Virus record (IMG/VR): IMGVR_UViG_3300005264_001596
Reading direction: 5' to 3' (one strand)
DNA length: 64,000 nt
Source: an uncultured virus (IMG/VR IMGVR_UViG_3300005264_001596)
Taxonomy: Duplodnaviria; Heunggongvirae; Uroviricota; Caudoviricetes
The first letter of the stretch is position 1, and each line of letters begins with the position of its first letter. Of the stretch, positions 5,052 to 56,349 are shown piece after piece. The notes under the pieces were generated by a model. That model was not told the origin of the DNA. It searched no databases and was given only the letters and a program-made list of their open reading frames with translations. A program made the translations under genes and the position numbers.

Positions 5052-5549
5052 ATGTCTTTTACAATAGATGGATTACAAAAACTTTTTTTATGTGATCTTG
5101 GTACAATTGAAATAAATGTTAAAGATTTATATTCTATATGGAAACGATGGTTATTAGAATCTGATAATGCTAAATATCCCCATGCTTTCGAAGTTGTTGG
5201 TGGTGATCCAACTATTGGAAATAATATTATAACACCATATTTCTTTTTAGCCAATGGATGGAAAATTCGACCGCAAGAAGCAAATCATAATCTTAATGTA
5301 GATGGTATACTACTTGTAAAGGGTGGTGGTGATGTATTTGTAGATACCTTAGGAATTTATAGAGTTGCTATTAATGCAATTGTACCTATATATACTGAAA
5401 CTGTATTAGTTGGAGGAGGAGGAGTTTCTAATATTAATAAACAGGACATTAGAGATGCAATGTTACTCAAACCAACAAATCAATTAACACCTGCTATAGG
5501 CTCATTAGATAATGCAATAAATCGTATTGATAAAAACACACAAACGTAA
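5052..5549 (+). CDS. putative structural protein, similar to the N-terminal domain of 439-1836
   Basis: DLYSIWKRW...YP..F...FFLANGW resembles CLYSFLKEEW...FPFPM...FEVIDGW. Confidence 0.55.
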   Translation: MSFTIDGLQKLFLCDLGTIEINVKDLYSIWKRWLLESDNAKYPHAFEVVGGDPTIGNNIITPYFFLANGWKIRPQEANHNLNVDGILLVKGGGDVFVDTLGIYRVAINAIVPIYTETVLVGGGGVSNINKQDIRDAMLLKPTNQLTPAIGSLDNAINRIDKNTQT

Positions 5550-24553: not shown

Positions 24554-26266
24554 TTGAAAAAATTTAATTTAGAAATAATGAAATATGCATCACAGAAAAA
24601 TAATTCTGAAAAGAATTTTTACTCTAAGATTGTAAATAGTAATATTACTGAAGCAATCTCAAGAAAGTCTATAAATCATCAAGATAGTGTACATTTATAT
24701 AATAAAATTGATGAATTGTATGACACCATTACACCAATGAAAAATATAATTCAAAATTTTGATTTGTATGAATCAGTTATTTGGAAATATTTTAATACTT
24801 TATTTCCAATAATAACAGTATTGAATATTACAAATGAAGATAATATGCCATTTGTAAGTACTGATGCTGTTGGTATAATAGTTGAAACAAAGAAAGATAT
24901 ATATTTATTAAATATACCATTCAATAAATGGCATAAGCTTATATTATCAAATAATAAAATTATATACACTACTACGTTGGAAATTGTTATTCATTCGTTA
25001 CAAAAATTTATAAAGAAAGATATACTATCTATAACACCATTCAAAATTATTAGAAAAGAAATAGAGATAGAATCTCAAACTAATAATATTTTGGAAACTG
25101 TAAAAGAATCAATAAAGAAACGACGAGTTGCAAAAGAAATTGCTATTCAAGTTTTCACAAAGTATAGTAATACTAATTCAAAAATCTTTAAGAAAATTAA
25201 AGATTGGAAACGCCTGAATCTATTCAAGATGAACTATGATTATTCACTTGGATATTCAGATAAAGTTCTAGGAGATAAACTCACACTTGGTTATGAAACC
25301 ACAAAAAGTGAGGTATCTGAAGAGAAGGATATTTTTAAATATCTCCTAGAACAAAAAGAAATACTTATTCATCGACCTTATCAAAAGTTTATTACACCTA
25401 AGGTTATTGAACAAGCTGCTAATGATCCTAACGTCATTAGTATAAAACAGTCTTTATACAGAGTTTCTAAAGATAGTAAAATTATCAAAGCTCTTATTAA
25501 AGCTGCAAAAAATGGAAAGGATGTTTTCTTAGTAATTGAACCAAGAGCAAGGTTCGATGAAGAGAATAATATCAAAGTGATAGAAACTCTTAGAAAATAT
25601 GGAGTTTCAGTTATACCAGGTATCATTAAATATAAAACTCATGCTAAGTTGTTGCAAATAACTAGTATAAAAAAAGGAAAGATATCAATATTAACAAATA
25701 TTTCAACTGGTAATTTTAATGAGAATACTGCAAAAACATATGAGGACTTTGACTTATTTACTAATTGTAATTTAGTCGGTCAAGAAGTTGCAAAGCTATT
25801 TGCTAGAATTGCTGGTATGAATATATCTTTTCAAGAGAATTATATAATTTCATCTCCAAATTCACAAAATAAAATTATTAATCTTATTAATAATTCTTCT
25901 AAGAAAATTGTTATCAAAGTAAATCATATTGGTGATAAAGAGATTATTTTAGCATTAGAAAATGCTAAGAAACGTGGAGTTGAAGTAATATTAATAGTTA
26001 GAACAACTAATGATATGGGTGATGGTATAATGGTGGTTGGTGATTATCTTGAACATAGTCGAATTTTCGTATTTGATGATATAATATATCTAGGTTCATC
26101 AGATTTACTATATCGAAATACACGAAGAAGATTTGAAGTAATTGTTGAGGTAAAAGAAGAAATAAATAAAAATAGAATAAAAGATTTATTAGCAATATAT
26201 CAAAATAATAAAAAATTTGATATACAAAAAAGAGTAAGTGATTATTACTTACAAAAAATAAAATAG
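24554..26266 (+). CDS. ppk1: polyphosphate kinase 1 (compact and divergent)
   Basis: LIHRPY, IKQSLYR, ARFDEENNI, KTHAK (phospho-His motif), STGNFN..TA..YED, KVN, LEHSRIF, SSDL..RN..RR.E; TTG start after AAGGAG. Confidence 0.9.
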   Translation: MKKFNLEIMKYASQKNNSEKNFYSKIVNSNITEAISRKSINHQDSVHLYNKIDELYDTITPMKNIIQNFDLYESVIWKYFNTLFPIITVLNITNEDNMPFVSTDAVGIIVETKKDIYLLNIPFNKWHKLILSNNKIIYTTTLEIVIHSLQKFIKKDILSITPFKIIRKEIEIESQTNNILETVKESIKKRRVAKEIAIQVFTKYSNTNSKIFKKIKDWKRLNLFKMNYDYSLGYSDKVLGDKLTLGYETTKSEVSEEKDIFKYLLEQKEILIHRPYQKFITPKVIEQAANDPNVISIKQSLYRVSKDSKIIKALIKAAKNGKDVFLVIEPRARFDEENNIKVIETLRKYGVSVIPGIIKYKTHAKLLQITSIKKGKISILTNISTGNFNENTAKTYEDFDLFTNCNLVGQEVAKLFARIAGMNISFQENYIISSPNSQNKIINLINNSSKKIVIKVNHIGDKEIILALENAKKRGVEVILIVRTTNDMGDGIMVVGDYLEHSRIFVFDDIIYLGSSDLLYRNTRRRFEVIVEVKEEINKNRIKDLLAIYQNNKKFDIQKRVSDYYLQKIK

Positions 26267-35852: not shown

Positions 35853-38800
35853 ATGCCAAAAAAGAAGAATAAAAGAGAATATAAAGCAAGTGATATTGTT
35901 GTTATTTATGAAGATCGAGAACGAGTTAGACAGAGTTCCCATGTTTATGGTAGACGTGGATTAGGTGGTATAAAACATTTATTCACAGAATCTTTTGATA
36001 ATGCTATTGATGAGCATATTGTTACTGGTACACCAATATATGTTAGATTTAATGAGATAACTAAAGAAATTACTGTATCAGATAATGGTGGAGGAATACC
36101 TCATGAAAAATTAAGAGAATTAGCAGAGGTAATGAACTCTAGTGGTAAATATAATAATACTACTAAAAATGGTTCTGCTTATGTAACATCAGTTGGTCAA
36201 AATGGTATGGGTATGAAAGTTATAAACTTTTTATCAGACCATATGACATTAAGTTCTAAACGTGATGGTAAAGAGTTAAGTGCTAATTATATTGATGGTA
36301 AATTTGTAAAAAGTACTACAAAAAAATGTCCAAAAAAAGAACATGGTACAACAATAACATTTAGACCATCAGATAAATATTTTGATAATAAAGTTAAGAA
36401 ACTTACAATAAAACATCTGACTGATTTAATAGAAAAAAGATTATACGTAACAGGACCACAATTAAAGGTCTATGTTAATCATGTAAAACCAAATGGAAAA
36501 GAATCTGCAAAAATATATTCAGGTTACTCATTAGAAAAATATGTAACAAAATTATCTAAAAATAAATCTGCAAAAATATTTAATCTACAACTTAAAGGTG
36601 CTTCTGATGATTCTAATTTTCAAAAAGGTGAAGTTGTTTTTCAAATGAATGAAAATGGTACTAAAGAAAATATTGAGGGATATGCAAATACTCTTTATAC
36701 TAAAGATGGTGGAACCCATATAAATTCTGTAAGAAATGCTATAACTGATTTCTTTAGAAAAGAAACTAATAATAGAATGTCCCAACTTGAGAGTAAGCAT
36801 ATTAATATTAAAGCTGATGATGTTAGAAGTCTCATTGTTGCAGTAATATCAGTTAGATTAGTATCTCCTGAGTTTAAAGGACAAACCAAAGATGAATTAG
36901 AATCTAATATAGAAAAAGATCTTACTTCTTTAATAATTAAAGAATTGAAAAAATCTTTAAATGATAAAGAAATAAATAATATATGTAACATGATTAAACT
37001 TAATGCTAGAGCTAGAATTGAATCAACTAAAATTATCAAAAGAGTTAAGAAAGCTGATAGCATTAGTAAATTTTCAAAGAATAATATATCTAATTATATT
37101 CGTATATCTAAAGGTAGTAAATCTAAATTCACTGAGATATTTTTAACTGAAGGATTATCAGCTGGAGCTTCAATGGATAAAGCACGAGATGCTGATAGTC
37201 AAGCAATATATCAAATTCAAGGAAAACCAGTTAACTTTTTAAAGAAAAAGAAAATTCAAATTGTAAATAATAAATTAGTTCAAGAATTAAGTAAAATTTA
37301 TGGTATAGAACCATTCAGTGAAGACTTACCAGTATTTGATAGAATTAATATAGCAACAGATGCTGATATTGATGGTGACCACATGGGTGCTTCTCTTATG
37401 GTATTACATTATATAGTATTTCCAGGAGTTATTAAAAATCATATTCTTTATAAAATAAAATTACCTTTATATAAAATTGATAAGAAAAATCCAATTTATT
37501 TAATTAATGATGATGAACTTTCACATTATATAGGAAAAGAATTTATGAAAAAGAATTTGTTATATTTTAATAAATCAAAATTTAGTAAATCTGCCACAAT
37601 TAAATTTATTAATTCAAATATAAATTATACAAATTTAATAGACAAAGTAGCTAAAAAACATGCATCAGTTCCAGAAGTAATAGAACTAATTGCTTTTTGT
37701 TTGCATAATTATAAAGAAGATATACCTAAATGGAAAAAGGAATTTAAACCTAGATATCCTTATATAAATATTACAAATACTAAAAGTGGTATAGAAGTTG
37801 ATGGTATTGATAGTGCAACAAAAAATTATCAAATTATATTAGTGAATAAGAAATTTAAAAAAGATATAGAGCATATTATAGAAGTTATTATTGATAATTA
37901 TAATAAGATATTCGGTTATAAGATTAATAAAGACGGTGAAGATATATCTTTATATAAAGTAAACAAAAAAATAGCTAATACAATTGGTTCAGGTAATAAG
38001 GTTCGATTTAAAGGGTTATTGTAATAGCTCTTGACTTTTTAATTGCGGGGAACTGCTAACTAGATTAGCGGGATGAATAATCCTCTTTATAGGTCTTAAC
38101 TACTAACTTATCATAGTGATATAGATAAGGGCAAGGAGTAATTTCCAAGGTATAGTAAAAATGTTAAGAATAAAGACAATCCGCAGCCAAGTTACTTATT
38201 ATAATAAGTAAAAGGTTCAACGACTATCCCTTTCGAGGGAGTACAGAACAAGCTAAGGTTCTGGAAATGGAAGACCTATCGTAAGATAGAAGATATAGTC
38301 TAGCCTACATTGAGAATTGTAGAAGTTCATAAGAGAACTGCATTAGTAGTTGCGTACTAATGTGAATATATGCGTGGGTTTGTAAAATTGCCCATGACTT
38401 TTTAATTGCGGGGAACTGCTAACTAGATTAGCGGGAATTATATTCCTCTTTATAAGTCTTAACTACTAAACTATCATAGTAATATAGATAGTGGCAAGGA
38501 GTAACTTCCAAGGTATAGTAAAAAGGTTAAGAATAAAGACAATCCGCAGCCAAGCTTCTTATATAGAAGAAGGTTCAACGACTATCCCTTTCGAGGGAGT
38601 ACAACTCAAGCTAATGGAGTTGGAAATAGAAGACCACTTAATTAAGTGAAGATATAGTCTAGTCTGCATTGAGAAATGTAGAAGTTCATAAGAGAACTGC
38701 ATAAAGATTTGCGTCCTATATGTGAATGAATACGGAGATGGAGTCTGTAGATTTCCATAATACATCAATATTAAGAGAAAATAGAACATCTATCAAAATA

Positions 38801-39799: not shown

Positions 39800-40408
39800 G
39801 TGTATAAAAAAATGAATGATAAAAAAATTAAAGATGGTGTTTTAGGCGAATCTGTATTAGATGATACATCAATAATAACAGAATCAACATGTATTTTAAC
39901 TAATACTAAATCAACACAGCCAATGGAAAAAATAGCTGACACTAATTTAGTAAAAATATATGGGCTATATCCTCATCCAGTAACATTTATTCAACCAAAC
40001 ATAAAAGAAATAAAATTATCATCTGGAGTAGATTTAAAACTTTTACCAAATACAATATTCGTTACTGAGGAAATAAATATTCATGATAATAATTTAGAAC
40101 CTATTTTTAGAATAGCTGGTGGTATTCATTCTATGAATGGTGAAATAATATTCAATATCTCTGTTTTAAATTCAAATTATGGTTATATCCTGATAGATCC
40201 TAATTATGATCAAAATGAAATTAATGAATATTTAAAATCTGAATTTAAATATTTAGATATAGAAAATAATATAGCTATGTTTAAAAAGAAAAGAAATGAA
40301 AAAGGTGATGTTATTGATATAGATAAAAATAGTTATATGATTATATCACAACATAAAATTGCTTTATTTGGATATGTATTAAATACACCTAAAATTACAA
40401 TTATATAA
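39800..40408 (+). CDS. hypothetical protein
   Basis: GAGGAG RBS (true start may be ATG 39812); terminator at 40413-40434. Confidence 0.6.
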   Translation: MYKKMNDKKIKDGVLGESVLDDTSIITESTCILTNTKSTQPMEKIADTNLVKIYGLYPHPVTFIQPNIKEIKLSSGVDLKLLPNTIFVTEEINIHDNNLEPIFRIAGGIHSMNGEIIFNISVLNSNYGYILIDPNYDQNEINEYLKSEFKYLDIENNIAMFKKKRNEKGDVIDIDKNSYMIISQHKIALFGYVLNTPKITII

Positions 40409-43561: not shown

Positions 43562-44485
43562 ATGAAAAATCGAAGAAATAATCATAACAACTTAAATAGA
43601 TATCCTAATCCAGTATCAAATAAAAAATCTATTAATAAGATTGATTTACTTTATATAAATAATATAAAAGATATTTTAAAAAATGGTAGTGATGATTTTG
43701 ATGATAAAGTTAGACCTGTATATAGTGATGGAACACCTGCACATACAAAATTTATAACACAAAATTTTGAAAAATATGACATATCTAAAGGTGAATTCCC
43801 AATAACAAATTTAAGACCTATTGCATGGAAGTCTGCTATTAAAGAAATTTTATGGATTTATCAAGATCAATCTAATGATTTAAATTTACTTAAAGATAAA
43901 TATAATATTAATTGGTGGGACGAATGGGAAGTCGAAAATACTGATACTATTGGATTAAGATATGGTGCAACAGTTAAAAAATATGATTTGATGAATAAAC
44001 TTCTTGAAGATATTAAAAATTCACCATATGGTAGAAGACATATTATGAATTTATGGCAGAATGAGGATTTAGATAATAATGAAGGATTAAATCCTTGTGC
44101 ATTTATGACAATGTGGAGTGTTAGAAAATCAAAAGAAGGCATAAAATATTTAGATATGACATTAACACAGCGTTCTAATGATTATTTAGTTTCTGGACAT
44201 ATAAATAAAATACAATATGTTGCATTGATGATGATGGTTGCCAAACATCTTAATTTAGAAGTTGGTATTTTTGCTCACTATACACATAACCTTCATATAT
44301 ATGATAGACATTTTAAACAAGCAACTGAAATAATGACAAGATTTAAATATAATCTTTGTTTAGACCAACCAAGGCTTATATTATTTACAGATAAAACTAA
44401 TTTTTATGATTTTACAATTGATGATTTTATGATTAGAAAGTATAATCCAATTAAACCTCAATTAAAATTTGATTTGGGAATTTAG
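43562..44485 (+). CDS. thyA: thymidylate synthase
   Basis: KSAIKEILW, WWDEW, YGRRH, catalytic LNPC, QRSND, IN..QY, NLHIYDRH. Confidence 0.93.
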   Translation: MKNRRNNHNNLNRYPNPVSNKKSINKIDLLYINNIKDILKNGSDDFDDKVRPVYSDGTPAHTKFITQNFEKYDISKGEFPITNLRPIAWKSAIKEILWIYQDQSNDLNLLKDKYNINWWDEWEVENTDTIGLRYGATVKKYDLMNKLLEDIKNSPYGRRHIMNLWQNEDLDNNEGLNPCAFMTMWSVRKSKEGIKYLDMTLTQRSNDYLVSGHINKIQYVALMMMVAKHLNLEVGIFAHYTHNLHIYDRHFKQATEIMTRFKYNLCLDQPRLILFTDKTNFYDFTIDDFMIRKYNPIKPQLKFDLGI

Positions 44486-45016
44486 GTGAATACTATGGAG
44501 ATAAATTTAATAGCGGCTGCAGATTTGCAGAATGGTATAGGAAAAGATGGTAAATTATTATATCATATAAAAGAAGATTTACAATATTTCAAAAAACAAA
44601 CACTTAATAATATTGTCATAATGGGAAGAAAAACTTTAGAGTCCCTTCCAAATGGTAGAGCTTTAAATAATCGTATTAATATTGTAATTACAAGAGATAA
44701 AGATTTTAAATGTAGTACTGCTATAGTTGTTAATAGTATTGAAGAAAGTATAAAAGCTATTAATTTTTTTGATGATGTTAATAGTGATTTAAAAGCATTC
44801 GTAATTGGCGGTGCATCTATATATAAACAATTTATGCAATATGCAGATAATATTTATTTAACTAAAATATATGATGTAAAACAAGCAGATTCACACTTTC
44901 CAGAAATGCTTAATACAGATTGGAAGTTATTAGAATATAATAAACAGACAACACATGAAGAATTAGATTATGCTTTTTTAATATATACAAGACAAACAAA
45001 TATCCTGCTTAAATAG
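44486..45016 (+). CDS. folA: dihydrofolate reductase
   Basis: GIGKDGKL, EDL.YFK..T, IMGRKT, L.NR.NIV, FVIGGASIY, ADSHFP. Confidence 0.93.
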   Translation: MNTMEINLIAAADLQNGIGKDGKLLYHIKEDLQYFKKQTLNNIVIMGRKTLESLPNGRALNNRINIVITRDKDFKCSTAIVVNSIEESIKAINFFDDVNSDLKAFVIGGASIYKQFMQYADNIYLTKIYDVKQADSHFPEMLNTDWKLLEYNKQTTHEELDYAFLIYTRQTNILLK

Positions 45017-45030: not shown

Positions 45031-46218
45031 TTATAATTCATCATAATTCTTTAATTGTTTATCGATTTTTTCCCATTTATTCTTAATAAATAACTCTCTT
45101 ATATCAAGTAAACCACCAGTAAATTTTAACATAGCTTCTCTAAGTCGCACATTACCAGCACCACCATCATGAGTATCTTTCTCTATAATATTTTCTAAAT
45201 AAGATAAATCTCTTTCAAGTAATGCAACAGTTTCTTTACTATAAGTAGAACCATTTATTTTTAATTCAGTTTTAATATAATCTGCAGTACTTCTCATTCT
45301 AGCAACATTTTCAGGATGAGGATCGAATAATTGTTTTATCATATGGGCATAAGTTGTAGCTCTATCATATTCTTTATTTCGTTGACCTGCACCATAATTT
45401 TTAAAGAAATATTCATCATATTTTCTTAAAGCTTCATGTACATACATACTATAACCAAACATTGCAGCAAAACCATCTGCAAATTTTTCTTCTCTATAAG
45501 TATCTAATTGTTTTATTGTACCCATTAAAAAAGTTATACTATAATAAATCACCAGTATTGAAAAATCCGTTAATTTTGCTATTTTTGATGCAAATTTTTT
45601 AAATACACTTTCATCTGATTTATCTTTAGAAGCTTCTTCACGTTCTTTACGATATGTTTCTATTGCATCATCTGACATTGCAATTGTTATCAAAAATTTC
45701 ATTAGTGAAGGCATATAGTTAACTATTTTTGCAGGTAATGTATGTCTTCTATTTAAGTTATGACCCATTTCATGTAATAATACAGCAACTAATTCTTTTT
45801 CATTTAATAATGTAAAATCTACCAAACTTAAAAATATTATTACATTTACTTTAGCTTTTGGATTAAATGATATAGCATATTTTCCTTTATATACTTTTAA
45901 TTTCTTTCCATATATAAGGCTTGTAGATTGTACTGATAATGTTGCAACTGAAGCTAAAGCATCTTTACCATCAATAATTTCAATATACATTTGATTTAAT
46001 CCAAATAATTTGGCAAATGTTTTTTCCACCTTTTTAATTTTTTCAGTATAAAATTTAAAATGTTTTGTGTTTTTAACATCTGGCATATTTTCTAATGTAA
46101 ATCCTTGTTTAGCTGAATAATCAATCATTTCTTTAAAGTATGATTCAATTTCAATTAAAAGTGGATTTCCACCATAGTACACTTCATTCAATAATTGATT
46201 TAATTTTGAACTTTCCAT
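45031..46218 (-). CDS. zincin (M48-like) metallopeptidase, probably virion-associated
   Basis: LLHEMGH, EEKFADGFA, HP....R; N-terminus ends in LLNE like the head-protein leaders. Confidence 0.7.
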   Translation of the reverse strand: MESSKLNQLLNEVYYGGNPLLIEIESYFKEMIDYSAKQGFTLENMPDVKNTKHFKFYTEKIKKVEKTFAKLFGLNQMYIEIIDGKDALASVATLSVQSTSLIYGKKLKVYKGKYAISFNPKAKVNVIIFLSLVDFTLLNEKELVAVLLHEMGHNLNRRHTLPAKIVNYMPSLMKFLITIAMSDDAIETYRKEREEASKDKSDESVFKKFASKIAKLTDFSILVIYYSITFLMGTIKQLDTYREEKFADGFAAMFGYSMYVHEALRKYDEYFFKNYGAGQRNKEYDRATTYAHMIKQLFDPHPENVARMRSTADYIKTELKINGSTYSKETVALLERDLSYLENIIEKDTHDGGAGNVRLREAMLKFTGGLLDIRELFIKNKWEKIDKQLKNYDEL

Positions 46219-46293: not shown

Positions 46294-47430
46294 ATGTACA
46301 ACTATGCATATAGAGATAGTATATATACTATCATAGAAGAAAAAATGAAAGATAAAAAAACTGAAAAAGAACTATTAAAGATTATTAAAAGATATATGGA
46401 TATGAATGCCAGTATACTTAATAGTGTAGATTTTTCAAGAAAACTTCTTTTTTCTAATTCTATTAAATTATCTATTAGTAAGTTATTTGGTAACATAGAT
46501 AAAAAATTTGTAAAGAAAGCAGCAGATAAAAGTTCGTATATTGATAAAAGTTGGTTTGTTACAACGAATCCAACGTATGTAATTTTAACATCAGTTATAA
46601 TATATTATCTACTCAATAAAGGTGAAGATCTTAAAATAAGAATGGTATTATATTTTTTAACAATGCCAATATTTTCTTCTACAATGTCACAATTTTTTAA
46701 AACAGGAGTTAATAAAGAAATAATGGATTATACTATTGCTAATCTTACACAAAAGAATTATATAAAGACAGAAGGTAGTATAATAAAAATGTTAGGTAAA
46801 ACTGCTGAAGTTACATTAGTAGCTTATAGGGATGATTTAAAAGAAATAAAGGATAAAGAATCTTACTTAATATTTATATCTGGATTAGAAACTAGAATAA
46901 GTAAAAATATTAAAAATATAGCTAAAAAATATTATGAGAACTATGAAAAAGGTAATTATCTAAATACTGATACTGATAATTTAGATGAAGAGAATTATAG
47001 AATAATATCATCAGATACTTTAAGAGTTTCTACATTGGCAACAAAAACAAGTATGAATTTATCTACAATTGGTTTTGATTCTCGAATTGTTAAACAAGCT
47101 AAAAATCTTTCACGAGATGTAAATATAAATAAATTATATGGATTTCTTGATAGTATTGTTGTTGATCATAAAGAGGATTTACGTGAGTTTATTATAAGAC
47201 TTATTGAAATTTTGTATATAAAGGGGTATACTGTTGATGATGCTAAATCACCTGTATTTCTTAAAGTAGGCATAGAGGCTTATAGAAGTAATAGTGATGA
47301 TAAAACTATTTTATTCATAAAAGATATGCTTGAGGAATGGGTAAATATAAAATCTTCAACAAAACATAATTATAAAAGATCTATATATTATACGTTTATA
47401 CTAACTATTCAGCAAGATGCTAAAGGGTGA
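46294..47430 (+). CDS. hypothetical protein (possibly structural)
   Basis: AAGGAGG RBS; 378 aa. Confidence 0.6.
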   Translation: MYNYAYRDSIYTIIEEKMKDKKTEKELLKIIKRYMDMNASILNSVDFSRKLLFSNSIKLSISKLFGNIDKKFVKKAADKSSYIDKSWFVTTNPTYVILTSVIIYYLLNKGEDLKIRMVLYFLTMPIFSSTMSQFFKTGVNKEIMDYTIANLTQKNYIKTEGSIIKMLGKTAEVTLVAYRDDLKEIKDKESYLIFISGLETRISKNIKNIAKKYYENYEKGNYLNTDTDNLDEENYRIISSDTLRVSTLATKTSMNLSTIGFDSRIVKQAKNLSRDVNINKLYGFLDSIVVDHKEDLREFIIRLIEILYIKGYTVDDAKSPVFLKVGIEAYRSNSDDKTILFIKDMLEEWVNIKSSTKHNYKRSIYYTFILTIQQDAKG

Positions 47431-47435
47431 TAATT

Positions 47436-48614
47436 ATGAATAACTTAGAGAAGTTATTAGAAAATACTAAAGAAAAAGAACAAAGAGATATTATGATTGA
47501 CAGATTATTAGAAGCAAATACAAATAATGAAAAAATGTATCCATATTATATATTTTTAACTCATAGTGGAACTGCGTTAGCTAATGGTATTAAAAAAATA
47601 ACAAAAGTGCCATATTCTCATGCAAGTATAACATTTGATTTATCACTTAAAAATATGTATAGTTTTGGAAGAAAAAATCCAAATAATCCATTCATTGGTA
47701 CATTCGTAAAAGAAAATATTCGAACAGGTCTATATAAAAATGTAGAATCAGTTGCTAAATATTCTGTATATGTTGGATTTGTACCAAAAGATGTATTAGA
47801 TAAAATGGAAGATAGAGTTAATGATTTTATAGAAGGTGTTAAGAATGGTAAAAAATTTAAATATAATTTCTTAGGATTATTTACTAATCTTTTAAAGATT
47901 GAAACAGAACGTGATGGTTATTATTTCTGTAGTGAATTTGTTGCTGAAATTATTAAATCTGCAACTGATAACGAAATTGTATCTAAACATAGAAGTATGG
48001 TTAAACCTTATGAATTTGCTAAAAATTCAAAATTGTTATTTTTAACAAAGGGCATACTAAAAAATTATAATGAAAAGAAAACTGCAATAAAATTAAAAAA
48101 CATTACAAAAAAGAATAATGTAATATTAAATGAAACTTATTTTAAGGAGATGTATATAATGAGTAACTTGGAAAAATTATTAGAAAGCACTAAAGAAGAA
48201 CAAAGAGATTCTAGTTTAGATTATTTAAACGAATCTAATACAATAATAAATGAAGCATTTGATGGAAGAAGACGTAGAGATGCAGCAGAATCATTTACTG
48301 ATGAAGATAGAGAAAAAATGATTTCTACTTATACAAGTATTAAAAATAGTTCTGCTAGTATACTTAAAAAGTATCCTGAAATAGAGGAAAAATTTGATTT
48401 ATATGATGAAAAAGAAGCTGGCTTAGAAGCTTTTAAAAATGGTGAAGCTGGATGTATTAAGATAGGTAAAATATCTTCAAGTGATGTAGATTTATCTAAA
48501 TATATAAATGATTTAAAATTTGAAAAATCTGTTTTTAAAGTTTATGTCCCTGATAATTCAAATGAACTTAGTTTATATATGATTGGTAAAGCCCTTAATA
48601 GAAATAGAAAATAA
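47436..48614 (+). CDS. leader-bearing protein: permuted papain-like (NlpC/P60, YiiX-type) domain fused in frame to a second leader plus cargo unit
   Basis: MNNLEKLLE leader; PYSHAS, YNFLGL, YYFCSEFV; internal RBS and leader at 48144-48260. Confidence 0.7.
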   Translation: MNNLEKLLENTKEKEQRDIMIDRLLEANTNNEKMYPYYIFLTHSGTALANGIKKITKVPYSHASITFDLSLKNMYSFGRKNPNNPFIGTFVKENIRTGLYKNVESVAKYSVYVGFVPKDVLDKMEDRVNDFIEGVKNGKKFKYNFLGLFTNLLKIETERDGYYFCSEFVAEIIKSATDNEIVSKHRSMVKPYEFAKNSKLLFLTKGILKNYNEKKTAIKLKNITKKNNVILNETYFKEMYIMSNLEKLLESTKEEQRDSSLDYLNESNTIINEAFDGRRRRDAAESFTDEDREKMISTYTSIKNSSASILKKYPEIEEKFDLYDEKEAGLEAFKNGEAGCIKIGKISSSDVDLSKYINDLKFEKSVFKVYVPDNSNELSLYMIGKALNRNRK

Positions 48615-48628
48615 AGGAGTTATATATA

Positions 48629-49192
48629 ATGAATAACTTAGAGAAGTTATTAGAAAGTACTAAAGAAGAACAAAGAGATTCTAGTTTAGATTATTTAAAC
48701 GAATCTAATACAATAATAAATGAAGCATTTTTTAAATCTAAACTTACAGAAGAGCAATTACTTGAAATTGCTAAAGAAATTTCAATTAAATTTGAAAAAC
48801 TAATTAATATAATCAAAATAAGATTCAATAAAGGTATTAAAAAATTTGATTTCTATACAAAAAATAATCTTTATAAATGGATTAGTTTAAAAGAAAGTAA
48901 TAAAGATTATGGATCAGATGTTCAGACTCGCCATATTCTTTCTATTGATACACCTAAAGCAATTAACTTAATTATCAAAGAAGGATTTGATAAAGATGAC
49001 GCATATGATGAATACTTAGATAGAGATTCAAAATTATTTAAATTTATTAAATCAATTATACCAGAAGATACTGAAATGAATTTAACTCTTGATTGTGATG
49101 GAGAATCTACTAATGATATGATATATTGGATTAATAATACAAATTATTATCAAATATTTAATAATTATAAAAAGAATATGATAAAAAAATAA
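48629..49192 (+). CDS. leader-bearing putative internal head protein
   Basis: MNNLEKLLESTKEEQRDSSLDYLNESNTIINEA followed by a unique body. Confidence 0.7.
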   Translation: MNNLEKLLESTKEEQRDSSLDYLNESNTIINEAFFKSKLTEEQLLEIAKEISIKFEKLINIIKIRFNKGIKKFDFYTKNNLYKWISLKESNKDYGSDVQTRHILSIDTPKAINLIIKEGFDKDDAYDEYLDRDSKLFKFIKSIIPEDTEMNLTLDCDGESTNDMIYWINNTNYYQIFNNYKKNMIKK

Positions 49193-49206
49193 AGGATGTG
49201 TATAAT

Positions 49207-50124
49207 ATGAATAATTTAAATAAATTATTAGAATCTGTTTCTAATACTGAAGAACACATAGAAACAACATATTTAACTGAACATGCATTTGTGATGAGTT
49301 TTTCAGATTTACAACTTGAAGCTGTAGATTTTAAAAAATTAAAAAATACATTTGTTGATTGGTTAAATAAATTATTTTTAAAATTAAGAGAGTTTACAGA
49401 TTATATGTTCTCTGCAATGATAGCAAATATTAAATCGAAAACAATGATTTTAAATACATTAGCAAAGAGTGGTATTGATTTTGATAAAAAATTTAATAAA
49501 CTTTTAACTGTTAAATTTCATGTGAATTCTACTATACTGAAAAAAATTTTAGTAATGTGGGATACTAAATATATTTACAATATTATAGATAGTAACAAGA
49601 CTTTTGATTTTTATGATATAATACAAAAAATATTACTTGATAAATATTTGATAAATATAGATAATGAAAGTATTGAATCTTTACGAGTTTCGCATTTATC
49701 AATTGGAGTGTTACTAACTAAATTTAAATTAGATGGTGTTGATGCAATTAATTTTAAATTATTTAAAGAATTTTTACAAGTTACTGAAAATATAATGAAA
49801 AATTATAAACCTTTAAAATTAAAGAAAGAAATAATGGTTGCTCATAAAGAAGCTGATAAGAAAGCTAGAGCAAATGTAGAATCTGATGAAGAATTATCTA
49901 TATTAAGACGTAGAAGTCTATTATTTGTTAGAGTAAATCATGAATTAATAATGTTTCAGAAGAATATGATTTCTACATTCTTAGATAGTATTATACACAT
50001 GATTATTAAATATACTAAAGAAACAGATCAAAAAATTGTAAATCCTGAGAAAATCTTTGGCTCAAAAAAGAAAAAAGATAAAGATATTGAGGATACTTTA
50101 CAAACTACATTATTATTAACTTAA
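49207..50124 (+). CDS. leader-bearing putative internal head protein
   Basis: MNNLNKLLES...LTE...QLEA. Confidence 0.65.
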   Translation: MNNLNKLLESVSNTEEHIETTYLTEHAFVMSFSDLQLEAVDFKKLKNTFVDWLNKLFLKLREFTDYMFSAMIANIKSKTMILNTLAKSGIDFDKKFNKLLTVKFHVNSTILKKILVMWDTKYIYNIIDSNKTFDFYDIIQKILLDKYLINIDNESIESLRVSHLSIGVLLTKFKLDGVDAINFKLFKEFLQVTENIMKNYKPLKLKKEIMVAHKEADKKARANVESDEELSILRRRSLLFVRVNHELIMFQKNMISTFLDSIIHMIIKYTKETDQKIVNPEKIFGSKKKKDKDIEDTLQTTLLLT

Positions 50125-50140
50125 GAAGGAGATGTATATT

Positions 50141-51142
50141 ATGAATAACTTAGAGAAGTTATTAGAAAGTACTAAAGAAAAAGAACAAAGAGATTCTAGT
50201 TTAGATTATTTAAATGAATCTGTAATAGTTATGTATGGTTCAGAAATAAATGAGTATGGTTCTTTATTAGAAGCTGCTGATGGTAATACAGAAAAGAAAA
50301 AGAATTTATTAAAAAGAATGATTGATACAATCATTAAATGGATTAAAAGTGTTATCAGAAAACTTGCTGAAAAATTAGGTCTTTTTGATAAAATTCGTAA
50401 AGAAAATAGTAAACTTAAAGGAAAAATTGATGATTTAAAAAATGTGGAAAAAGAAAAGAAAAATCTTGAGAAAAAACTTAAAGAATCTAAAGAAAAAATA
50501 AAAAAAGTTAAAACCAATAAAGATGGTTATAAAGAAGAAGTAAGTATTTTAGACCAAGAAATACGTAAGTTAGAAGAAAAACTTAAATCTATTGAAAATC
50601 GCAAGTTAGTCTTTCGTGTACGCCTTATATGTTTAAGAACTACACTTGATACGATTCCAGAAAATAGAACTGTATCAATTGAAATACTGAGTAAATGTTT
50701 AAAAGAAACAGAAAAAATTGGAGATATTTATTTTAATGCTAAAGATCAAGTAATTAAAGATGATAAACCTTTATATGAAGGAAAATTTCCTGATAATTAT
50801 ATAATCACTACATTAAAGTGTGTTATAAATCAAAATCAAACATCTGACATTAAAACAATTATTGATAAATATGATATTGCGAATAAAAGATTTAAAGGCA
50901 TTGCTTCTAATTTAGGTAAAGAACTTGATGATACTCAAAGAGAGGTTTCTTATATTTCTAAAGAAATAAATACTATTGAAGATCCTAAAGAATTAGAAAT
51001 TGAACAAAAATACCTTAATTTCTTTCAACGAAAGAATAACATTTTACTTAAAATGATAACTTTTATTTCTAATTATATTGGTTCTGGAGCTAGTCCTTCT
51101 ATTACTGTATTTCAATATAATGAAGAAGATGATGATAATTAA
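50141..51142 (+). CDS. leader-bearing coiled-coil putative internal head protein
   Basis: Leader, then LLEA, an amphipathic helix (LLKRMIDTIIKWIKSVIRKL) and a long coiled coil; terminator at 51150-51171. Confidence 0.7.
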   Translation: MNNLEKLLESTKEKEQRDSSLDYLNESVIVMYGSEINEYGSLLEAADGNTEKKKNLLKRMIDTIIKWIKSVIRKLAEKLGLFDKIRKENSKLKGKIDDLKNVEKEKKNLEKKLKESKEKIKKVKTNKDGYKEEVSILDQEIRKLEEKLKSIENRKLVFRVRLICLRTTLDTIPENRTVSIEILSKCLKETEKIGDIYFNAKDQVIKDDKPLYEGKFPDNYIITTLKCVINQNQTSDIKTIIDKYDIANKRFKGIASNLGKELDDTQREVSYISKEINTIEDPKELEIEQKYLNFFQRKNNILLKMITFISNYIGSGASPSITVFQYNEEDDDN

Positions 51143-51213
51143 ACTAGATACAGAGGGATAATTCCCTCTGTTCTTTTTTTGTAATTAAACATAATTTAAA
51201 TAAGGAGGTTTAT

Positions 51214-51975
51214 ATGACATTTGAAGAAAAAAAACAAGAATTTATAGAATATTTGATTGGAGTTATTGAAACTCTTGAAGGAGGTAAAAATAAAAAGAAT
51301 GCAACTCATTTGAGAGAAAAATTTGAATCAATGAATGAACAAAAATTTATTAATTATTTTAGAAAATTCTTTAAAGATGAAGATATGAATTTAACCCTTA
51401 ATGTTGAACCAGGTGAAGATAATTTATGTATGAAAGATATAATAAAAGCTGCTAAAAAGGCAGATGTTGAATTATTTGATAATATTGCATTACCATATTT
51501 ATCTAAAGATGCTAATAATCCTATAATAACACAAAATAAAATTATGACTGGATACATTAATGGTCGACGTCTACAACAAAGGGTTAGAAAGAAAAACTCT
51601 ACATCTATATCAATTTCTAAGAGAGATCCTAGATATAATCAGGTAACAGGTGAAGATAAGATTGGTCGTATTACAGATTGGGAAACAAGAGCTTTAGAAG
51701 TGCAAGGTGCTAAAAGTGCATTAAAAGAATTCTTTGGTCCACGTTCAGATGATTCTGTATCAAAAGAACAAATGTATCAAAGTATAATTGAAAAAGGTAC
51801 AGTTAGTTTGAAAGATTTAGATATAAGTAAATTTAATAAACAGTCATTAATTACAGCAAATGATTTTTTTATTGCTGCTATGGTTGGTAATGATTTACTT
51901 ACTAGAGAATATTTATTACCAAGAACTTTAAAATATGGTAAAAAGGATGCAACTGGATTGAAACGTGGTAAGTAA
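51214..51975 (+). CDS. rpoB: RNA polymerase beta subunit, short C-terminal fragment (probably virion RNAP)
   Basis: GYINGRRLQQRVRKK, NQVTG, GRITDWETRAL, ALKEFFGPRSDD...MY..I align with the RpoB C-terminus; AACA motif at 51188. Confidence 0.8.
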   Translation: MTFEEKKQEFIEYLIGVIETLEGGKNKKNATHLREKFESMNEQKFINYFRKFFKDEDMNLTLNVEPGEDNLCMKDIIKAAKKADVELFDNIALPYLSKDANNPIITQNKIMTGYINGRRLQQRVRKKNSTSISISKRDPRYNQVTGEDKIGRITDWETRALEVQGAKSALKEFFGPRSDDSVSKEQMYQSIIEKGTVSLKDLDISKFNKQSLITANDFFIAAMVGNDLLTREYLLPRTLKYGKKDATGLKRGK

Positions 51976-51993
51976 AAGAAGGAGATGTATATA

Positions 51994-52752
51994 ATGAATA
52001 ACTTAGAGAAGTTATTAGAAAGTACTAAAGAAGAACAAAGAGATTCTAGTTTAGATTATTTAAACGAATCTGCAATGATTTTAAATAATACTGAAAATAT
52101 TTTACAAGAATCAACAAAATATATTGTTAAAACACTTGGTAAAATTGAAAAAACATTAAATAAACAAGAAGCTAAATTAAAGTTAATTGATAAAAATGCA
52201 AAATATGATATTAAAAAACCTATGATTGGATATGCATTAATTTCTGAAACAAAAGGTGATATCATAACAGCATCTCAATCAGGAAAATTATTAACTACGT
52301 ATCTTAATGTGATTAAACCTAGTAAAATGGAAAATGCAATAAGACTAATTTTAAATACTTACAGCAAAAATGGTATTTATTTAGATTATATGGAACTTAA
52401 TGGTCATCCTGATAGTATTATATACTCAACACCTAATAAAAATTTAGTTGAAATGAGGAATGTTAGTTATAAAGAAATATCTGAAAGAATTGCAACTGCT
52501 AAAAAATCCATACAAGCTATTGCTAAAATGGATAATGAAACTGACAAAATAAAAGCAGATTTCTTAAAATGGTATGAAGAAGAAAAAGCTAAATTAAAAA
52601 CTATAGATAAGATAAATCATAAAATCAAAAAGAATAATTTTAATCCTGGTGTATTTATAGTATCTAAAACTATAACATCATTAATTAGTTTATATGTAAG
52701 AGATACTGATAAAATGATAAAAAATATTACTAAATTAGAGAAAGGAAAATAA
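51994..52752 (+). CDS. leader-bearing putative internal head protein
   Basis: Identical 78-nt leader, then ILQES and a unique body. Confidence 0.7.
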   Translation: MNNLEKLLESTKEEQRDSSLDYLNESAMILNNTENILQESTKYIVKTLGKIEKTLNKQEAKLKLIDKNAKYDIKKPMIGYALISETKGDIITASQSGKLLTTYLNVIKPSKMENAIRLILNTYSKNGIYLDYMELNGHPDSIIYSTPNKNLVEMRNVSYKEISERIATAKKSIQAIAKMDNETDKIKADFLKWYEEEKAKLKTIDKINHKIKKNNFNPGVFIVSKTITSLISLYVRDTDKMIKNITKLEKGK

Positions 52753-52755
52753 ATT

Positions 52756-52887
52756 ATGAATGATTATGAAAAAGCTAGAAAAGAACAAGAAGAAAAAATT
52801 AAAAATATGATTGAAAGTGGTAGTCAAATGCTTAATGAAGTAGCTGTAGGAGAAACTTTTTCAAATTCAAGAAAAGTTGAGAAATAA
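52756..52887 (+). CDS. 43-aa small protein (not in the ORF track)
   Basis: AAGGA RBS; MNDYEKARKEQEEKIKNMIESGSQMLNEVAV...; contains MIE/LNE motifs. Confidence 0.5.
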   Translation: MNDYEKARKEQEEKIKNMIESGSQMLNEVAVGETFSNSRKVEK

Positions 52888-52917
52888 CAATAATTAAATA
52901 TAAGGAGGAAATATAAT

Positions 52918-53736
52918 ATGAACAATTTAACAAATTTATTAGAAAATATTCAAGATAATAATATTCAAGATAATAATGGTGATTTAAATTATTTATTTGA
53001 ATCTAGGGTAGAAATGGAATTATCAGAAGAATTATTATTATCAGAAGCTGGAGGTTTAAATCTTAATTATAAAACTGATAAACTTTTAGAACAATGGTCA
53101 GTATTTATGAATGATGCAATGACCAAAGTTTTTAAAACTAGAGATATGCAGATTAAAGCCCTTAATAAATTAACTGCAACTCGTAATGTATATAATGCTG
53201 ATAAAGTAGTATCTTTATATCCTGATGTATTAGCAACAGATATGAATAAATTATTTGATATTAAAAAAATGATTAAAATTATAGAATCTGATTTTAATCC
53301 AGATTTGAATTATCGAAATAATGAAAAAGTATTTATTAAAAAATGGTTAAATGATTTGGGTAGTGGAATTATGCAATGGAATTATCTTTGGGTTATATTA
53401 TTGTCAGCCAGTGGAATTGGTTCAATAATTTCTATATTTAGTTCAATTAAATCAATCCTTGCTAGATTACCAAAAACAAAAATTAAAAGTAAAGATGTTA
53501 CTGAAAAAGAACTTAAAAAATATATTGAAGATATGAAGAAAGAAATTAATGGTATTAAAAATCTTTATGATACATTTAAAAAAGCTGGATCTGAGATAAA
53601 TAAAATTGAAGATAAAAAAACCAGAGCATATGCATACTGGGTATTTAAATCAGCTATATTTAGAGCAGATAGTATAATTGAAATGAAATATCAACATATT
53701 GTTACTATTTATAAACAAAAAATGAAGAAAAAATAA
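52918..53736 (+). CDS. leader-bearing putative internal head protein
   Basis: MNNLTNLLEN...LNYLFES...LLSEA; one hydrophobic segment; terminator at 53744-53767. Confidence 0.65.
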   Translation: MNNLTNLLENIQDNNIQDNNGDLNYLFESRVEMELSEELLLSEAGGLNLNYKTDKLLEQWSVFMNDAMTKVFKTRDMQIKALNKLTATRNVYNADKVVSLYPDVLATDMNKLFDIKKMIKIIESDFNPDLNYRNNEKVFIKKWLNDLGSGIMQWNYLWVILLSASGIGSIISIFSSIKSILARLPKTKIKSKDVTEKELKKYIEDMKKEINGIKNLYDTFKKAGSEINKIEDKKTRAYAYWVFKSAIFRADSIIEMKYQHIVTIYKQKMKKK

Positions 53737-53772
53737 TTTTAATAATAGAGGGATAATACCCTCTATTTTTTT

Positions 53773-54492
53773 TTGAAATTTAGATTAACTAGAACTCAAA
53801 GAAAAATTAGATTTGCATTATTGTTAATATGTACTGCATACCTTATAACAATAGGTGTAAAAAATATAACACATGAAAAACATGAAGTGATTAATAATGA
53901 TATCGTATATGCGATTGAAAATATATCAGTTCAAGAATCAGTAGAACCAAAAACATTTATTGCAAATTTAAAAGAAACAAATTTATTAAAAAGACAATAT
54001 GAAATCATGAAACCTTTAATTGAAACAATCAGCGAATATAATAAATTAAATAAGTATATCTCAAAGTATAAAGGTAATGATTTTACTGTTGATGATTATT
54101 TAATGGTTAAAGAAGTATCAAATTATTATGGCGTTCCAATTGAAATATCATTAGCAATCATAGAAGTTGAAAGTAATTTTTATTCAGCTGCTGCTAATCC
54201 AGATTCTTCTGCTGGTGGATATTATCAAGTACTTTCTTCTACTGGTAAATGGTTATATGAAAAAGTATTACCTGAAGAAATACGAACTAAGTATGGTGCT
54301 TGGTCTGATGATATGAGATTTAATAAAGAAATAAGTATTTATCTTGGAAACTCATATTTAGCTTTTAATTATAAAGGTGACTGGAGTAGAAGTATTCGAA
54401 GATATTATGGAAGTATTCATGAAGAAAATAACAATATTTATCTAAATAAAGTAATAAATAAAACTAATAATATTTTAAAAGAAGTATATTAA
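53773..54492 (+). CDS. membrane-anchored lytic transglycosylase (SLT family)
   Basis: N-terminal TM; AIIEVESNF (catalytic Glu), SAGGYYQV, IYLGNSYL. Confidence 0.8.
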   Translation: MKFRLTRTQRKIRFALLLICTAYLITIGVKNITHEKHEVINNDIVYAIENISVQESVEPKTFIANLKETNLLKRQYEIMKPLIETISEYNKLNKYISKYKGNDFTVDDYLMVKEVSNYYGVPIEISLAIIEVESNFYSAAANPDSSAGGYYQVLSSTGKWLYEKVLPEEIRTKYGAWSDDMRFNKEISIYLGNSYLAFNYKGDWSRSIRRYYGSIHEENNNIYLNKVINKTNNILKEVY

Positions 54493-55263: not shown

Positions 55264-56349
55264 ATGAAAGATTTAATGACTAATACATTAGTATTAGGAT
55301 TAGGTCAAGCAGGCGGTAATGTAACAAGTCTTGCATATGAAAGAAATATTTTAACAGCAGCAATTAATACATCACAAAAAGATCTATATGAAACAAATGC
55401 TCATATCAAAATTCATATGAGTGATATTGATGGTTCAGGTAAAGATAGAGATTTTTCGTTCGAGATGTTTAAAGAAAATTATCAATCTCTTTTACAACCA
55501 ATATTTGATTTAATTGATTCCAATGATATTAATAATATTGCAATTGTTGCATCTGGAACAGGTGGAACAGGTTCAGGAATCTTTGCACCAGTATTAGCAT
55601 TTTTAAATAATAAATATGGTGATAAACTTATTTATGGCGTAGCCATTTTAGGTTCAATTAAAGAAGATTACTTAGCTCAGTCAAATGCAAAAGAATTTTT
55701 AAAAGAAGTTGACGAAAAACTCAGTGTTCCTTATATGATTTTCGATAATGACTCTGTAGAAGGTAATGTTCATGAGGTTTACAAAACAATTAATAATGAT
55801 ATCATCAATAAAATATGTGTTATTGATGGTTACATGTATGATGCATCTGATATAGCTAATATCGATAATAGTGACAAAACTAGATTGTATAAATCTGGAA
55901 GATTTTTAATATCTACAATTGATAATATAAGTACATCTTTAACTAATGATATTGATGCTGAAGATAATATCATTTCATCTATAAGAAAAAGTCATCAAAC
56001 TGATATTGGTGAATTTGTAGACACATATGGAATTTATATTAATTCAAATGATTTAAATAAATTTGATTATAATTTTGTAAAATTACAAAATGAATTTGGT
56101 CAATCAGTAACGATGTTTAAACACATTCAATTGTATAATGGTAAATCTCCAGAAATTGCTGTTATTATGACAGGACTAGAATCTCCAGTTGATAGATTTA
56201 ATCTTATTGATAGAAGAATGTCTGAATATGAATCAAAAGAACGAAGAGCATTACCAAATTCAAATAAAATGAGTATTCCATTTGGTGAAAGAGTTGCAGT
56301 TGAAAAAATTAATGATGATGATGATTTGCTTGGATTATTTACAAGATAA
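55264..56349 (+). CDS. tubulin/FtsZ-family GTPase (TubZ/PhuZ-like)
   Basis: GLGQAGGN, AINTS..D, GSGKD, SGTGGTGSG signature, FDN, IDNSD. Confidence 0.9.
   Translation: MKDLMTNTLVLGLGQAGGNVTSLAYERNILTAAINTSQKDLYETNAHIKIHMSDIDGSGKDRDFSFEMFKENYQSLLQPIFDLIDSNDINNIAIVASGTGGTGSGIFAPVLAFLNNKYGDKLIYGVAILGSIKEDYLAQSNAKEFLKEVDEKLSVPYMIFDNDSVEGNVHEVYKTINNDIINKICVIDGYMYDASDIANIDNSDKTRLYKSGRFLISTIDNISTSLTNDIDAEDNIISSIRKSHQTDIGEFVDTYGIYINSNDLNKFDYNFVKLQNEFGQSVTMFKHIQLYNGKSPEIAVIMTGLESPVDRFNLIDRRMSEYESKERRALPNSNKMSIPFGERVAVEKINDDDDLLGLFTR

Follow-up and report, generated by a model that had tools for sequence, protein, structure and literature searches.

A repeated acidic leader at the start of seven adjacent genes of an uncultured AR9-like giant phage: a probable capsid-targeting propeptide

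Why would a run of neighboring phage genes begin with one and the same short peptide and then continue into proteins that have little else in common? The question is raised by a locus in a 64-kb stretch of DNA from an uncultured virus (IMG/VR record IMGVR_UViG_3300005264_001596), here called the window, whose origin label is marine sediment metagenome. Between positions 47436 and 53736, seven genes on the + strand, termed U1 to U7, open with an acidic leader of 25-28 residues, MNNLEKLLESTKE(K)EQRDSSLDYLNE-S. The genes start at 47436 (U1), 48159 (U2), 48629 (U3), 49207 (U4), 50141 (U5), 51994 (U6) and 52918 (U7). We consider it probable, from analysis of the sequence, that the leader is a propeptide like the capsid-targeting sequence (CTS) of phage T4, which would be removed by a Glu-specific head protease and which has been spread by duplication and recombination. 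The source, as judged from its genes, is an uncultured jumbo (giant) phage of the AR9/phiKZ-like group and distant kin of Bacillus phage AR9. Its closest cultured relatives in tblastn searches, at 25-41% protein identity, are the Bacillus phages AR9, PBS1 and Goe21, Staphylococcus jumbo phages and Yersinia phage phiR1-37.

A repeat search identified one family of seven direct copies of a 63-nucleotide (nt) unit, beginning at 47418, 48141, 48611, 49189, 50123, 51976 and 52900. DNA identity to the U5 copy, taken as reference, is 81, 83, 89, 68, 100, 95 and 67% for U1 to U7 in order. The original prediction had described five near-identical leaders and two degenerate ones, and this division stands, with U1, U2, U3, U5 and U6 in the first group and U4 and U7, which are degenerate along their whole length, in the second. 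When up to 3 mismatches were allowed, a 21-nt pattern for the leader matched 7 times against 0.18 expected (maximum 1 across 100 shuffles), and a leader profile run against 900 six-frame pieces of the window retrieved the 7 copies alone, at 45.6-60.0 bits, the next piece lying at E 0.3. A 43-residue open reading frame (ORF) between U6 and U7 (52756-52887, + strand) was considered as an eighth leader and rejected, with no match to the profile at E values up to 100.

The lead-in AAGGAG(A/T)T(G/A)TATA(A/T)ATG, also predicted earlier, precedes U2, U3, U5 and U6. U4 and U7 have it in altered form, and U1 does not have it. AGGAG is the general ribosome-binding site across this phage, and the array-specific part is the spacer ATGTATATA. 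DNA identity of U2, U3, U5 and U6 starts at AAGGAG, about 15 nt 5' of the ATG. An onset of conservation in the spacer, 15 nt ahead of the start codon, together with five copies that are nearly identical in DNA, rare codons included, would be in keeping with an element whose main role lies in the nucleic acid itself, an RNA cassette for regulation or the initiation of translation that gives the array equal expression and in which the peptide is incidental. Such a role is very improbable in our view. The DNA of U4 and U7 has fallen to 67-68% identity and yet keeps the amino acid pattern with synonymous changes, U1 is without the upstream part and yet retains the peptide, and the conserved stretch takes in 75-84 nt of the reading frame, up to a motif defined by codons. 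In addition, an Rfam scan found no RNA family at the leader repeats.

The residues invariant in all seven copies are M1, N3, L4, L7, L8, E9, L24 and E26, and no others. This set comprises the extreme N-terminus and two Leu-x-Glu motifs, L7-L8-E9 and L24-x-E26, of which the first reads LLE-S or LLE-N and the second LNE-S, LLE-A, LTE-H or LFE-S. Because U4 and U7 have drifted in DNA sequence and yet retain the invariant residues, partly by synonymous changes (AAT/AAC swaps), selection evidently acts on the leader peptide. The (I/L)-X-E motif anticipated at the leader is thus found twice, both invariant motifs being Leu-x-Glu, which at the level of the motif is the T4-type head-protease site (PMC9026906).

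Behind the leader the genes go separate ways. U1 (47436-48158; leader 47436-47513, ending LLE-A) encodes a YiiX-like permuted-papain cysteine hydrolase and has no stop codon. U2 (48159-48614; leader 48159-48233) has its own AAGGAG and ATG but lies in frame with U1, and consists of the leader, an NTIINEAF extension common to U3, and a 117-residue body; U3 (48629-49192; leader 48629-48703) has a body of its own. U4 (49207-50124), with a degenerate leader (49207-49281, MNNLNKLLESVSNTEEHIETTYLTE-H), has a basic body, as does U6 (51994-52752; leader 51994-52068). The body of U5 (50141-51142; leader 50141-50218) is basic and resembles a coiled coil, with sub-threshold coiled-coil matches only. U7 (52918-53736) has a degenerate leader (52918-53001, ending LFE-S) and a basic body with one hydrophobic segment. 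All seven lie on the + strand. Scans of PHROG, Pfam and NCBIfam assigned no family to U2, U3, U4, U6 or U7, and PHROG contained no internal-protein family matching any of U1 to U7. A tblastn search of 50,697 phage records returned nothing for U1, U4 or U7, and the ESM Atlas gave no usable lead for U7 or U6, its own models of which have a predicted local distance difference test score (pLDDT) of 0.42 and 0.43.

The bodies had been described as unrelated, and with one exception this was borne out. In Smith-Waterman comparisons against 200 shuffles, 20 of the 21 pairs had z of 2.52 or less, and BLASTP among the bodies gave a best E of 0.011 (in a tiny set), apart from nine residues common to U2 and U3. 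The exception is U4 and U7, which align collinearly over about 200 residues at z 4.0, with 0 of 200 shuffles scoring as high; BLASTP with composition correction does not detect this similarity. There is a weak hint that U4 and U7, and this pair alone, are old paralogs. Their weak alignment could be extended to the entire array, whose members would then be ordinary tandem paralogues with bodies diverged past recognition, the N-terminus being the sole constrained part, for example as an oligomerization or docking helix that is never removed. Precedent exists in the large paralogue families formed by giant-phage head proteins, among them gp53 and gp54 of SPN3US, which have identical 15-residue N-termini and 34% overall identity (PMC5694885), and AR9 carries paralogue sets at the syntenic place. 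We nevertheless find this explanation quite unlikely, given the low scores of the other 20 pairs, the failure of BLASTP to find anything past the leader, and body lengths that spread from 126 to 307 residues. The body of U1, moreover, comes from a large family that occurs without this leader, and DNA identity between units drops sharply at points specific to each pair, which uniform divergence of duplicates would not give.

These drops, from near-identity to background, occur within a few bases. U3, U5 and U6 diverge directly past GAA TCT (LNE-S), in agreement with the earlier claim that similarity ends abruptly after an xxE motif. The details differ for U1, which diverges earlier, after EQRD, and whose LLE-A belongs to the family of its domain, and for U6, in which LQE-S is found 3' of the junction. 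The similarity of U2 and U3 runs further, to IINEAF. There are consequently three distinct junctions, after EQRD, after LNES and after IINEAF, and because the junctions differ among pairs, repeated recombination or duplication is indicated. U1, U3, U5 and U6 also have in common the rare codons AAC, GAG and AAG at positions 3, 5 and 6, which account for 10, 14 and 14% of the synonymous codons used by the phage. The five close leader copies evidently share their DNA by descent, and this sharing, rare codons included, along with the pair-specific junctions, points to recombination, as had been proposed for the leader, or to duplication.

A feature that the original prediction had missed is that U1 reads into U2 with no in-frame stop codon, forming one ORF (47427-48614). 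Directly 5' of the AAGGAG and ATG of U2 (48140-48160), a stretch of four Ts contains a TAA that is shifted from the frame by one base, and a change of one base in this stretch would part the two genes. Because a contig from the probable source run spans 47434-48218, the U1-U2 junction included, with 0 differences at a depth of about 40, the fusion is not an assembly slip. Contigs of this run break at every leader copy; the unique pieces have depths of 32-40 and the shared 60-nt leader piece a depth of 88.5. The breaks and depths fit real repeats within one genome and rule out repeat-mediated misassembly as the source of the joints between leader and cargo; the order of the cargo segments lies outside the reach of these contigs.

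Every one of the 7 units has 1-3 sites of the pattern [LIVMF]xE[SAG] among its first 45 residues. In 43 other window proteins the pattern is rare, with 45 sites in 15,984 residues, or 1 per 355 residues. A further site within about 20 residues past the leader was found in 5 of the 7 units against a window frequency of 0.058 (P 1.2e-5), a probability that is less strong if U2 and U3, whose extra sites are due to common descent, are counted once. The leaders are acidic, with a charge of -2.5 to -5.5, and five of the bodies are basic, with isoelectric points (pI) of 9.0-9.6.

Four other proteins of the window have [LIVMF]xE[SAG] in their first 36 residues, namely those encoded at 13894-16101 (IIE-G at 17), 19029-20576 (FLE-S at 14), 39800-40408 (LGE-S and ITE-S at 17 and 28) and 5052-5549 (LLE-S at 36). 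The first is a homologue of a "virion structural protein" and the second an RNA polymerase (RNAP) beta-type subunit. These early sites could be further short propeptides.

We envisage that the seven proteins, unrelated in other respects, are synthesized with the leader at the N-terminus and that the leader would dock them to the prohead core during assembly. Cuts after L-L-E9 and L-x-E25/26/28 would be made by a Glu-specific head-maturation protease of the T4 gp21/phiKZ gp175 type, and most members would be cut again at a further site 7-18 residues on. The mature, mostly basic proteins would remain in the head with the DNA and would probably be ejected into the host, one of them being the YiiX-like cysteine hydrolase. 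The DNA cassette, from the Shine-Dalgarno spacer to the cleavage codons, would spread by duplication and recombination, with new bodies placed behind it.

The closest parallel is found in T4. Gp21 of T4 cleaves behind L/I-X-E. Packaging requires no more of IPIII than its first 10 residues, residues 4 and 7 acting in targeting and residues 8 and 10 in processing (PMC9026906). Diverse internal proteins of T4 share the CTS alone, which may be an evolutionary route for loading varied proteins (PMC3012670, PMC9026906). Like the leader described here, the CTS of IPI, IPII, IPIII and Alt is a short N-terminal peptide that ends in L/I-x-Glu and is the sole shared part of diverse, mostly basic proteins encoded side by side, and the invariant leader positions 4, 7, 8 and 9 parallel the CTS positions for targeting (4 and 7) and for processing (8 and 10). 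The array leader differs in having 25-28 residues and two L-x-E motifs where the T4 peptide has about 10 residues, and in its seven tandem copies with the ribosome-binding spacer inside the repeat. The array phage, with its split RNA polymerases, belongs to the AR9/phiKZ-like phages, outside the T4 group, and family scans found no PHROG or Pfam family for U2 to U7 and no relation to T4 proteins.

A second parallel comes from phiKZ, 201phi2-1 and SPN3US, giant phages with a virion RNAP that cut head proteins after Glu and in which many internal head proteins carry N-terminal propeptides removed in this way; the conserved N-termini of SPN3US gp53 and gp54 have been called "reminiscent" of T4 CTSs (PMC5694885). 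The inner-body proteins of SPN3US and phiKZ are full-length paralogues (pfam12699), whereas the array bodies are unrelated and have no such Pfam match at E of 0.01 or less. The propeptides of those phages are mostly longer than 100 residues, compared to 25-28 for the array leader, and the published motifs are A-X-E for SPN3US and S-x-E for phiKZ (PMC5694885), in contrast to the Leu at P3 in the array.

The papain-like hydrolase claimed for U1 was supported by an AlphaFold2 model with a pLDDT of 92.1, built with 38 sequences, in which the body matches permuted papain folds: VIA-align gave Z 12.1 with 3kw0 (root-mean-square deviation 3.0 A over 153 residues), 11.7 with 2if6 and 9.1 with the type VI secretion system effector TseH (6v98). 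Across the 38 sequences C165 never varies and at least 90% have H62, the His preceding the Cys in sequence. On the model, the U1 body is a YiiX/Peptidase_C92-like permuted papain-fold hydrolase at the level of fold only, since identity to YiiX/C92-like hydrolases and TseH is 13-17% and no Pfam or NCBIfam model matches U1 at the thresholds used.

A HMMER search of 1.84 billion representative proteins with ORF 47427-48614 gave 1,690 matches at E of 0.001 or less, and the family figures that follow rest on the best 150 of these. All 150 align to the U1 body, and none to U2 or to the leader alone. Many of the homologues sit in proteins of 600-2,900 residues, on contigs of up to 256 kb; Pfam domains in 12 of them were Metallophos (5), GNAT (3), transglutaminase-like (2) and NUDIX (1). 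In 145 of the 150 proteins we identified 169 U1-like domain instances, 144 of which have at least 25 residues upstream. An xxE[S/A] motif stands 4-20 residues before the domain in 116 of these 144, against 19.8 +/- 3.8 (maximum 29) in 200 trials of random windows drawn from the same proteins; the homologues are interrelated and the counts are not independent events. With similar upstream segments collapsed, 61 of 84 retain the motif. P3 is I, L, V or M in 89 of the 116 sites, and the LLE-A of U1 aligns with this upstream site of the family. In four multidomain homologues inspected by eye (P0006, P0014, P0022 and P0026), (I/L/M)xE(S/A) sites cluster between domains of the Metallophos, GNAT, NUDIX, transglutaminase-like and U1-like types, as if they marked cleavage joints.

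The enzyme that would use such sites might be a different one from the head protease. A gene for an M48/zincin-like metallopeptidase (45031-46218, - strand; Pfam Peptidase_M48 E 5.1e-9) is a conserved neighbor of the array, corresponding to AR9 gp051, and is a candidate alternative processing enzyme; U1 itself stands first in the array, and its papain fold, in which His and Cys are conserved, has the family's site directly upstream. Either might cleave the leader, which would then be a pro-sequence that keeps effectors inactive, with cleavage perhaps after delivery or in the cytoplasm. Zincin-like peptidases have indeed been proposed as processors of multidomain phage effectors (Iyer et al., PMC5512222). 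The occurrence of (I/L/M)xE(S/A) at NUDIX and GNAT boundaries without a U1-like domain, seen in the four homologues, fits a general protease better than self-cleavage, and the nearest folds to U1, those of YiiX and TseH, are amidase- or cell-wall-hydrolase-like and are not known Glu-specific endopeptidases. Cleavage after Glu is, on the other hand, documented for the head proteases of T4, phiKZ, 201phi2-1 and SPN3US (PMC5694885, PMC9026906). Processing by the zincin or by U1 is for these reasons unlikely, and we retain the head protease as the enzyme of the favored account.

The homologues of U1 share the multidomain setting, with Metallophos, transglutaminase-like, GNAT and NUDIX domains, of the "polyvalent" proteins (Iyer et al. 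2017, PMC5512222), which are thought to be packaged and delivered with the DNA (PMC5512222). U1-U2 would be a small in-frame two-module version of such a protein, with no recognized domain in U2, whereas in the array most modules form genes of their own, each behind a separate copy of the leader. The (I/L/V)xE(S/A) punctuation was not met in the part of the Iyer et al. account that was available (PMC5512222). We suggest tentatively, as a possibility that we would not favor at present, that the leader cassette and the giant polyvalent proteins of uncultured jumbo phages are two states of one system, in which modules are fused or split at (I/L/V)-x-Glu-(Ser/Ala) joints, which one Glu-specific head protease would decode once the proteins have been loaded. 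The two forms would be interconverted by recombination at the conserved joint and leader DNA, and U1-U2 would be an intermediate caught between them. If so, these phages would have a general and evolvable grammar for assembling the protein sets that jumbo phages inject.

The surroundings of the array are consistent with a virion function. Directly 5' lies a homologue of AR9 gp052 and phiR1-37 g205 (46294-47430, + strand; phrog_2921 E 1.6e-22), whose stop codon overlaps the ribosome-binding site of U1. It has tblastn matches in AR9, PBS1, Staphylococcus jumbo phages and phiR1-37, where g205 is annotated as a "phage structural protein". Inside the array, without a leader, is a gene for an RNAP beta N-terminal fragment (51214-51975, + strand; phrog_3233 E 1.1e-30), the product of which matches the RNAP part of AR9 gp077, by annotation a virion RNAP subunit that is proteolysed so that the RNAP domain alone is found in virions. 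The 3' neighbor (53773-54492, + strand) encodes an SLT-type lytic transglycosylase (Pfam SLT E 1e-7) with an N-terminal hydrophobic segment, which also falls into the PHROG transglycosylase and internal-virion-protein families. The comparison with related genomes recommended earlier showed that the gene order topoisomerase II, M48 zincin on the opposite strand and gp052 homologue is the same in AR9. In that phage the locus gp051-gp061 continues into small late-type genes, and the genes next to gp052 include small paralogue sets and four annotated virion proteins.

These neighbors also bear on whether the leader might be an address for some destination other than the capsid, such as a phage compartment, a membrane or a secretion route. 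Among the genes of the phage is one for a PhuZ-like tubulin (55264-56349; Pfam Tubulin E 2.1e-12; phrog "tubulin PhuZ"), protein sorting into a nucleus-like compartment occurs in related giant phages (PMC13282480), and U7 has a hydrophobic segment. The leader, however, is acidic and helical and is without signal-peptide features, no named phage-nucleus shell family was found among the scanned ORFs, the invariant residues resemble a protease site, and the neighbors of the array are linked to the virion. Another destination is accordingly improbable, and the capsid remains the address that we propose.

Several observations weigh against a capsid-targeting propeptide and must be set beside those above. 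The bodies of U2 and U3 are not basic (pI 5.6 and 6.6). Leu-x-Glu is short, and the proteome is rich in Leu, Glu and Lys. In the AlphaFold2 model residues 2-29 of U1 form one helix (pLDDT 77-83), and the xxE[S/A] that stands ahead of the domain in the U1 family may be a structural element or a trait inherited from a common ancestor, and not a cleavage site. General family scans of the ORFs in the 64-kb window recognized no gene for a head protease, major capsid, portal or scaffold protein; the window leaves out about 16.5 kb of the 80,543-bp contig. In AR9 a match to Peptidase_S77, the T4 prohead protease family, is near the threshold, at 26.4 bits against a cut-off of 27. The cultured relatives are without this leader: the syntenic AR9 genes form full-length paralogue sets lacking it, where U1 to U7 carry leader cassettes, and tblastn of U1 to U7 against the syntenic 30 kb of AR9 gave a best E of 0.11. 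The closest relatives of the gp052-like protein, P0004 (59% identity, on a 107-kb contig) and P0005 (57%, on a 21-kb contig), are extended at the N-terminus by about 35-70 residues, with many LLE-S, LLE-A, FLE-S and FLE-A motifs. The window copy lacks these extensions, which were found in no other database protein of 136-2,000 residues.

One of these two extensions begins MNQELNWESLLES, loosely resembling the array leader. The AR9 paralogue sets also have N-termini in common. Gp054-056 (L001 5759-7873) are full-length paralogues that all start MG(L/M)PS-x-IIN, and in a second set (L001 11613-12793) gp059, gp060 and an unannotated 91-residue ORF share a FKQPRQKMWGVF-like N-terminal block.

We searched for relatives of the array in metagenomes. 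The exact degenerate leader DNA pattern had 0 matches in IMG/VR, and the leader alignment gave 172 pattern stretches there, 0 of which were confirmed. U3, compared with 5.8 billion proteins (lengths 102-328), matched itself and U6 only, both on one 80,543-bp contig, of which the window is 64 kb and which is part of a larger genome. The RNAP-fragment gene had no close locus in IMG/VR. With an alignment of gp052-like proteins we found 5 loci in metagenomes, at 25-30% identity and with no leader array behind any of them, and no match in IMG/VR or the species genomes.

The novelty of the array had been overstated at first. Loading of varied proteins by a CTS has already been described in reviews of T4 (PMC3012670, PMC9026906), and the principle of leader-loaded cargo is known from that phage. 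What is new is the occurrence in an AR9-like lineage, the 25-28-residue leader with two sites, and the tandem cassette that includes the ribosome-binding spacer, as well as the in-frame U1-U2 fusion and the family-wide site before a papain-fold cargo domain. Should the leader prove to be a capsid address, seven proteins of a never-cultured lineage would be marked as likely members of the first wave of injected proteins, and T4-style loading of varied cargo would exist in the AR9/phiKZ-like branch with a different, longer tag. The I/L/V-x-Glu-Ser/Ala pattern would provide a testable rule for the cut points in giant phage effector proteins. A short capsid-loading tag for foreign proteins would also be of practical use, as the T4 CTS has shown.

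Two terminator-like hairpins on the + strand bound the second half of the array, one after U5 (51150-51171) and one closing the array (53744-53767). The stem sequence is nearly identical in both (AGAGGGATAAT.CCCTCT).

Elsewhere, the window has a GC (guanine plus cytosine) content of 21-35%, about 24% along most of its length, and its genes include several split RNAP beta-type subunits, a UvsX-like recombinase and topoisomerase II. If the AR9/PBS1 phage group, that of the nearest cultured relatives, has uracil DNA, the presence of thymidylate synthase and dihydrofolate reductase genes (43562-45016) suggests that the phage of the window uses thymine. A polyphosphate kinase gene (24554-26266, + strand; Pfam PP_kinase_C_1 E 1.6e-53) is unusual as a phage auxiliary gene. 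Two tandem group I introns (37999-38322 and 38349-38681, + strand; Rfam RF00028, 55 and 67 bits) both lie directly 3' of the topoisomerase II large-subunit ORF, and the topoisomerase II gene of AR9 is likewise annotated as three joined pieces.

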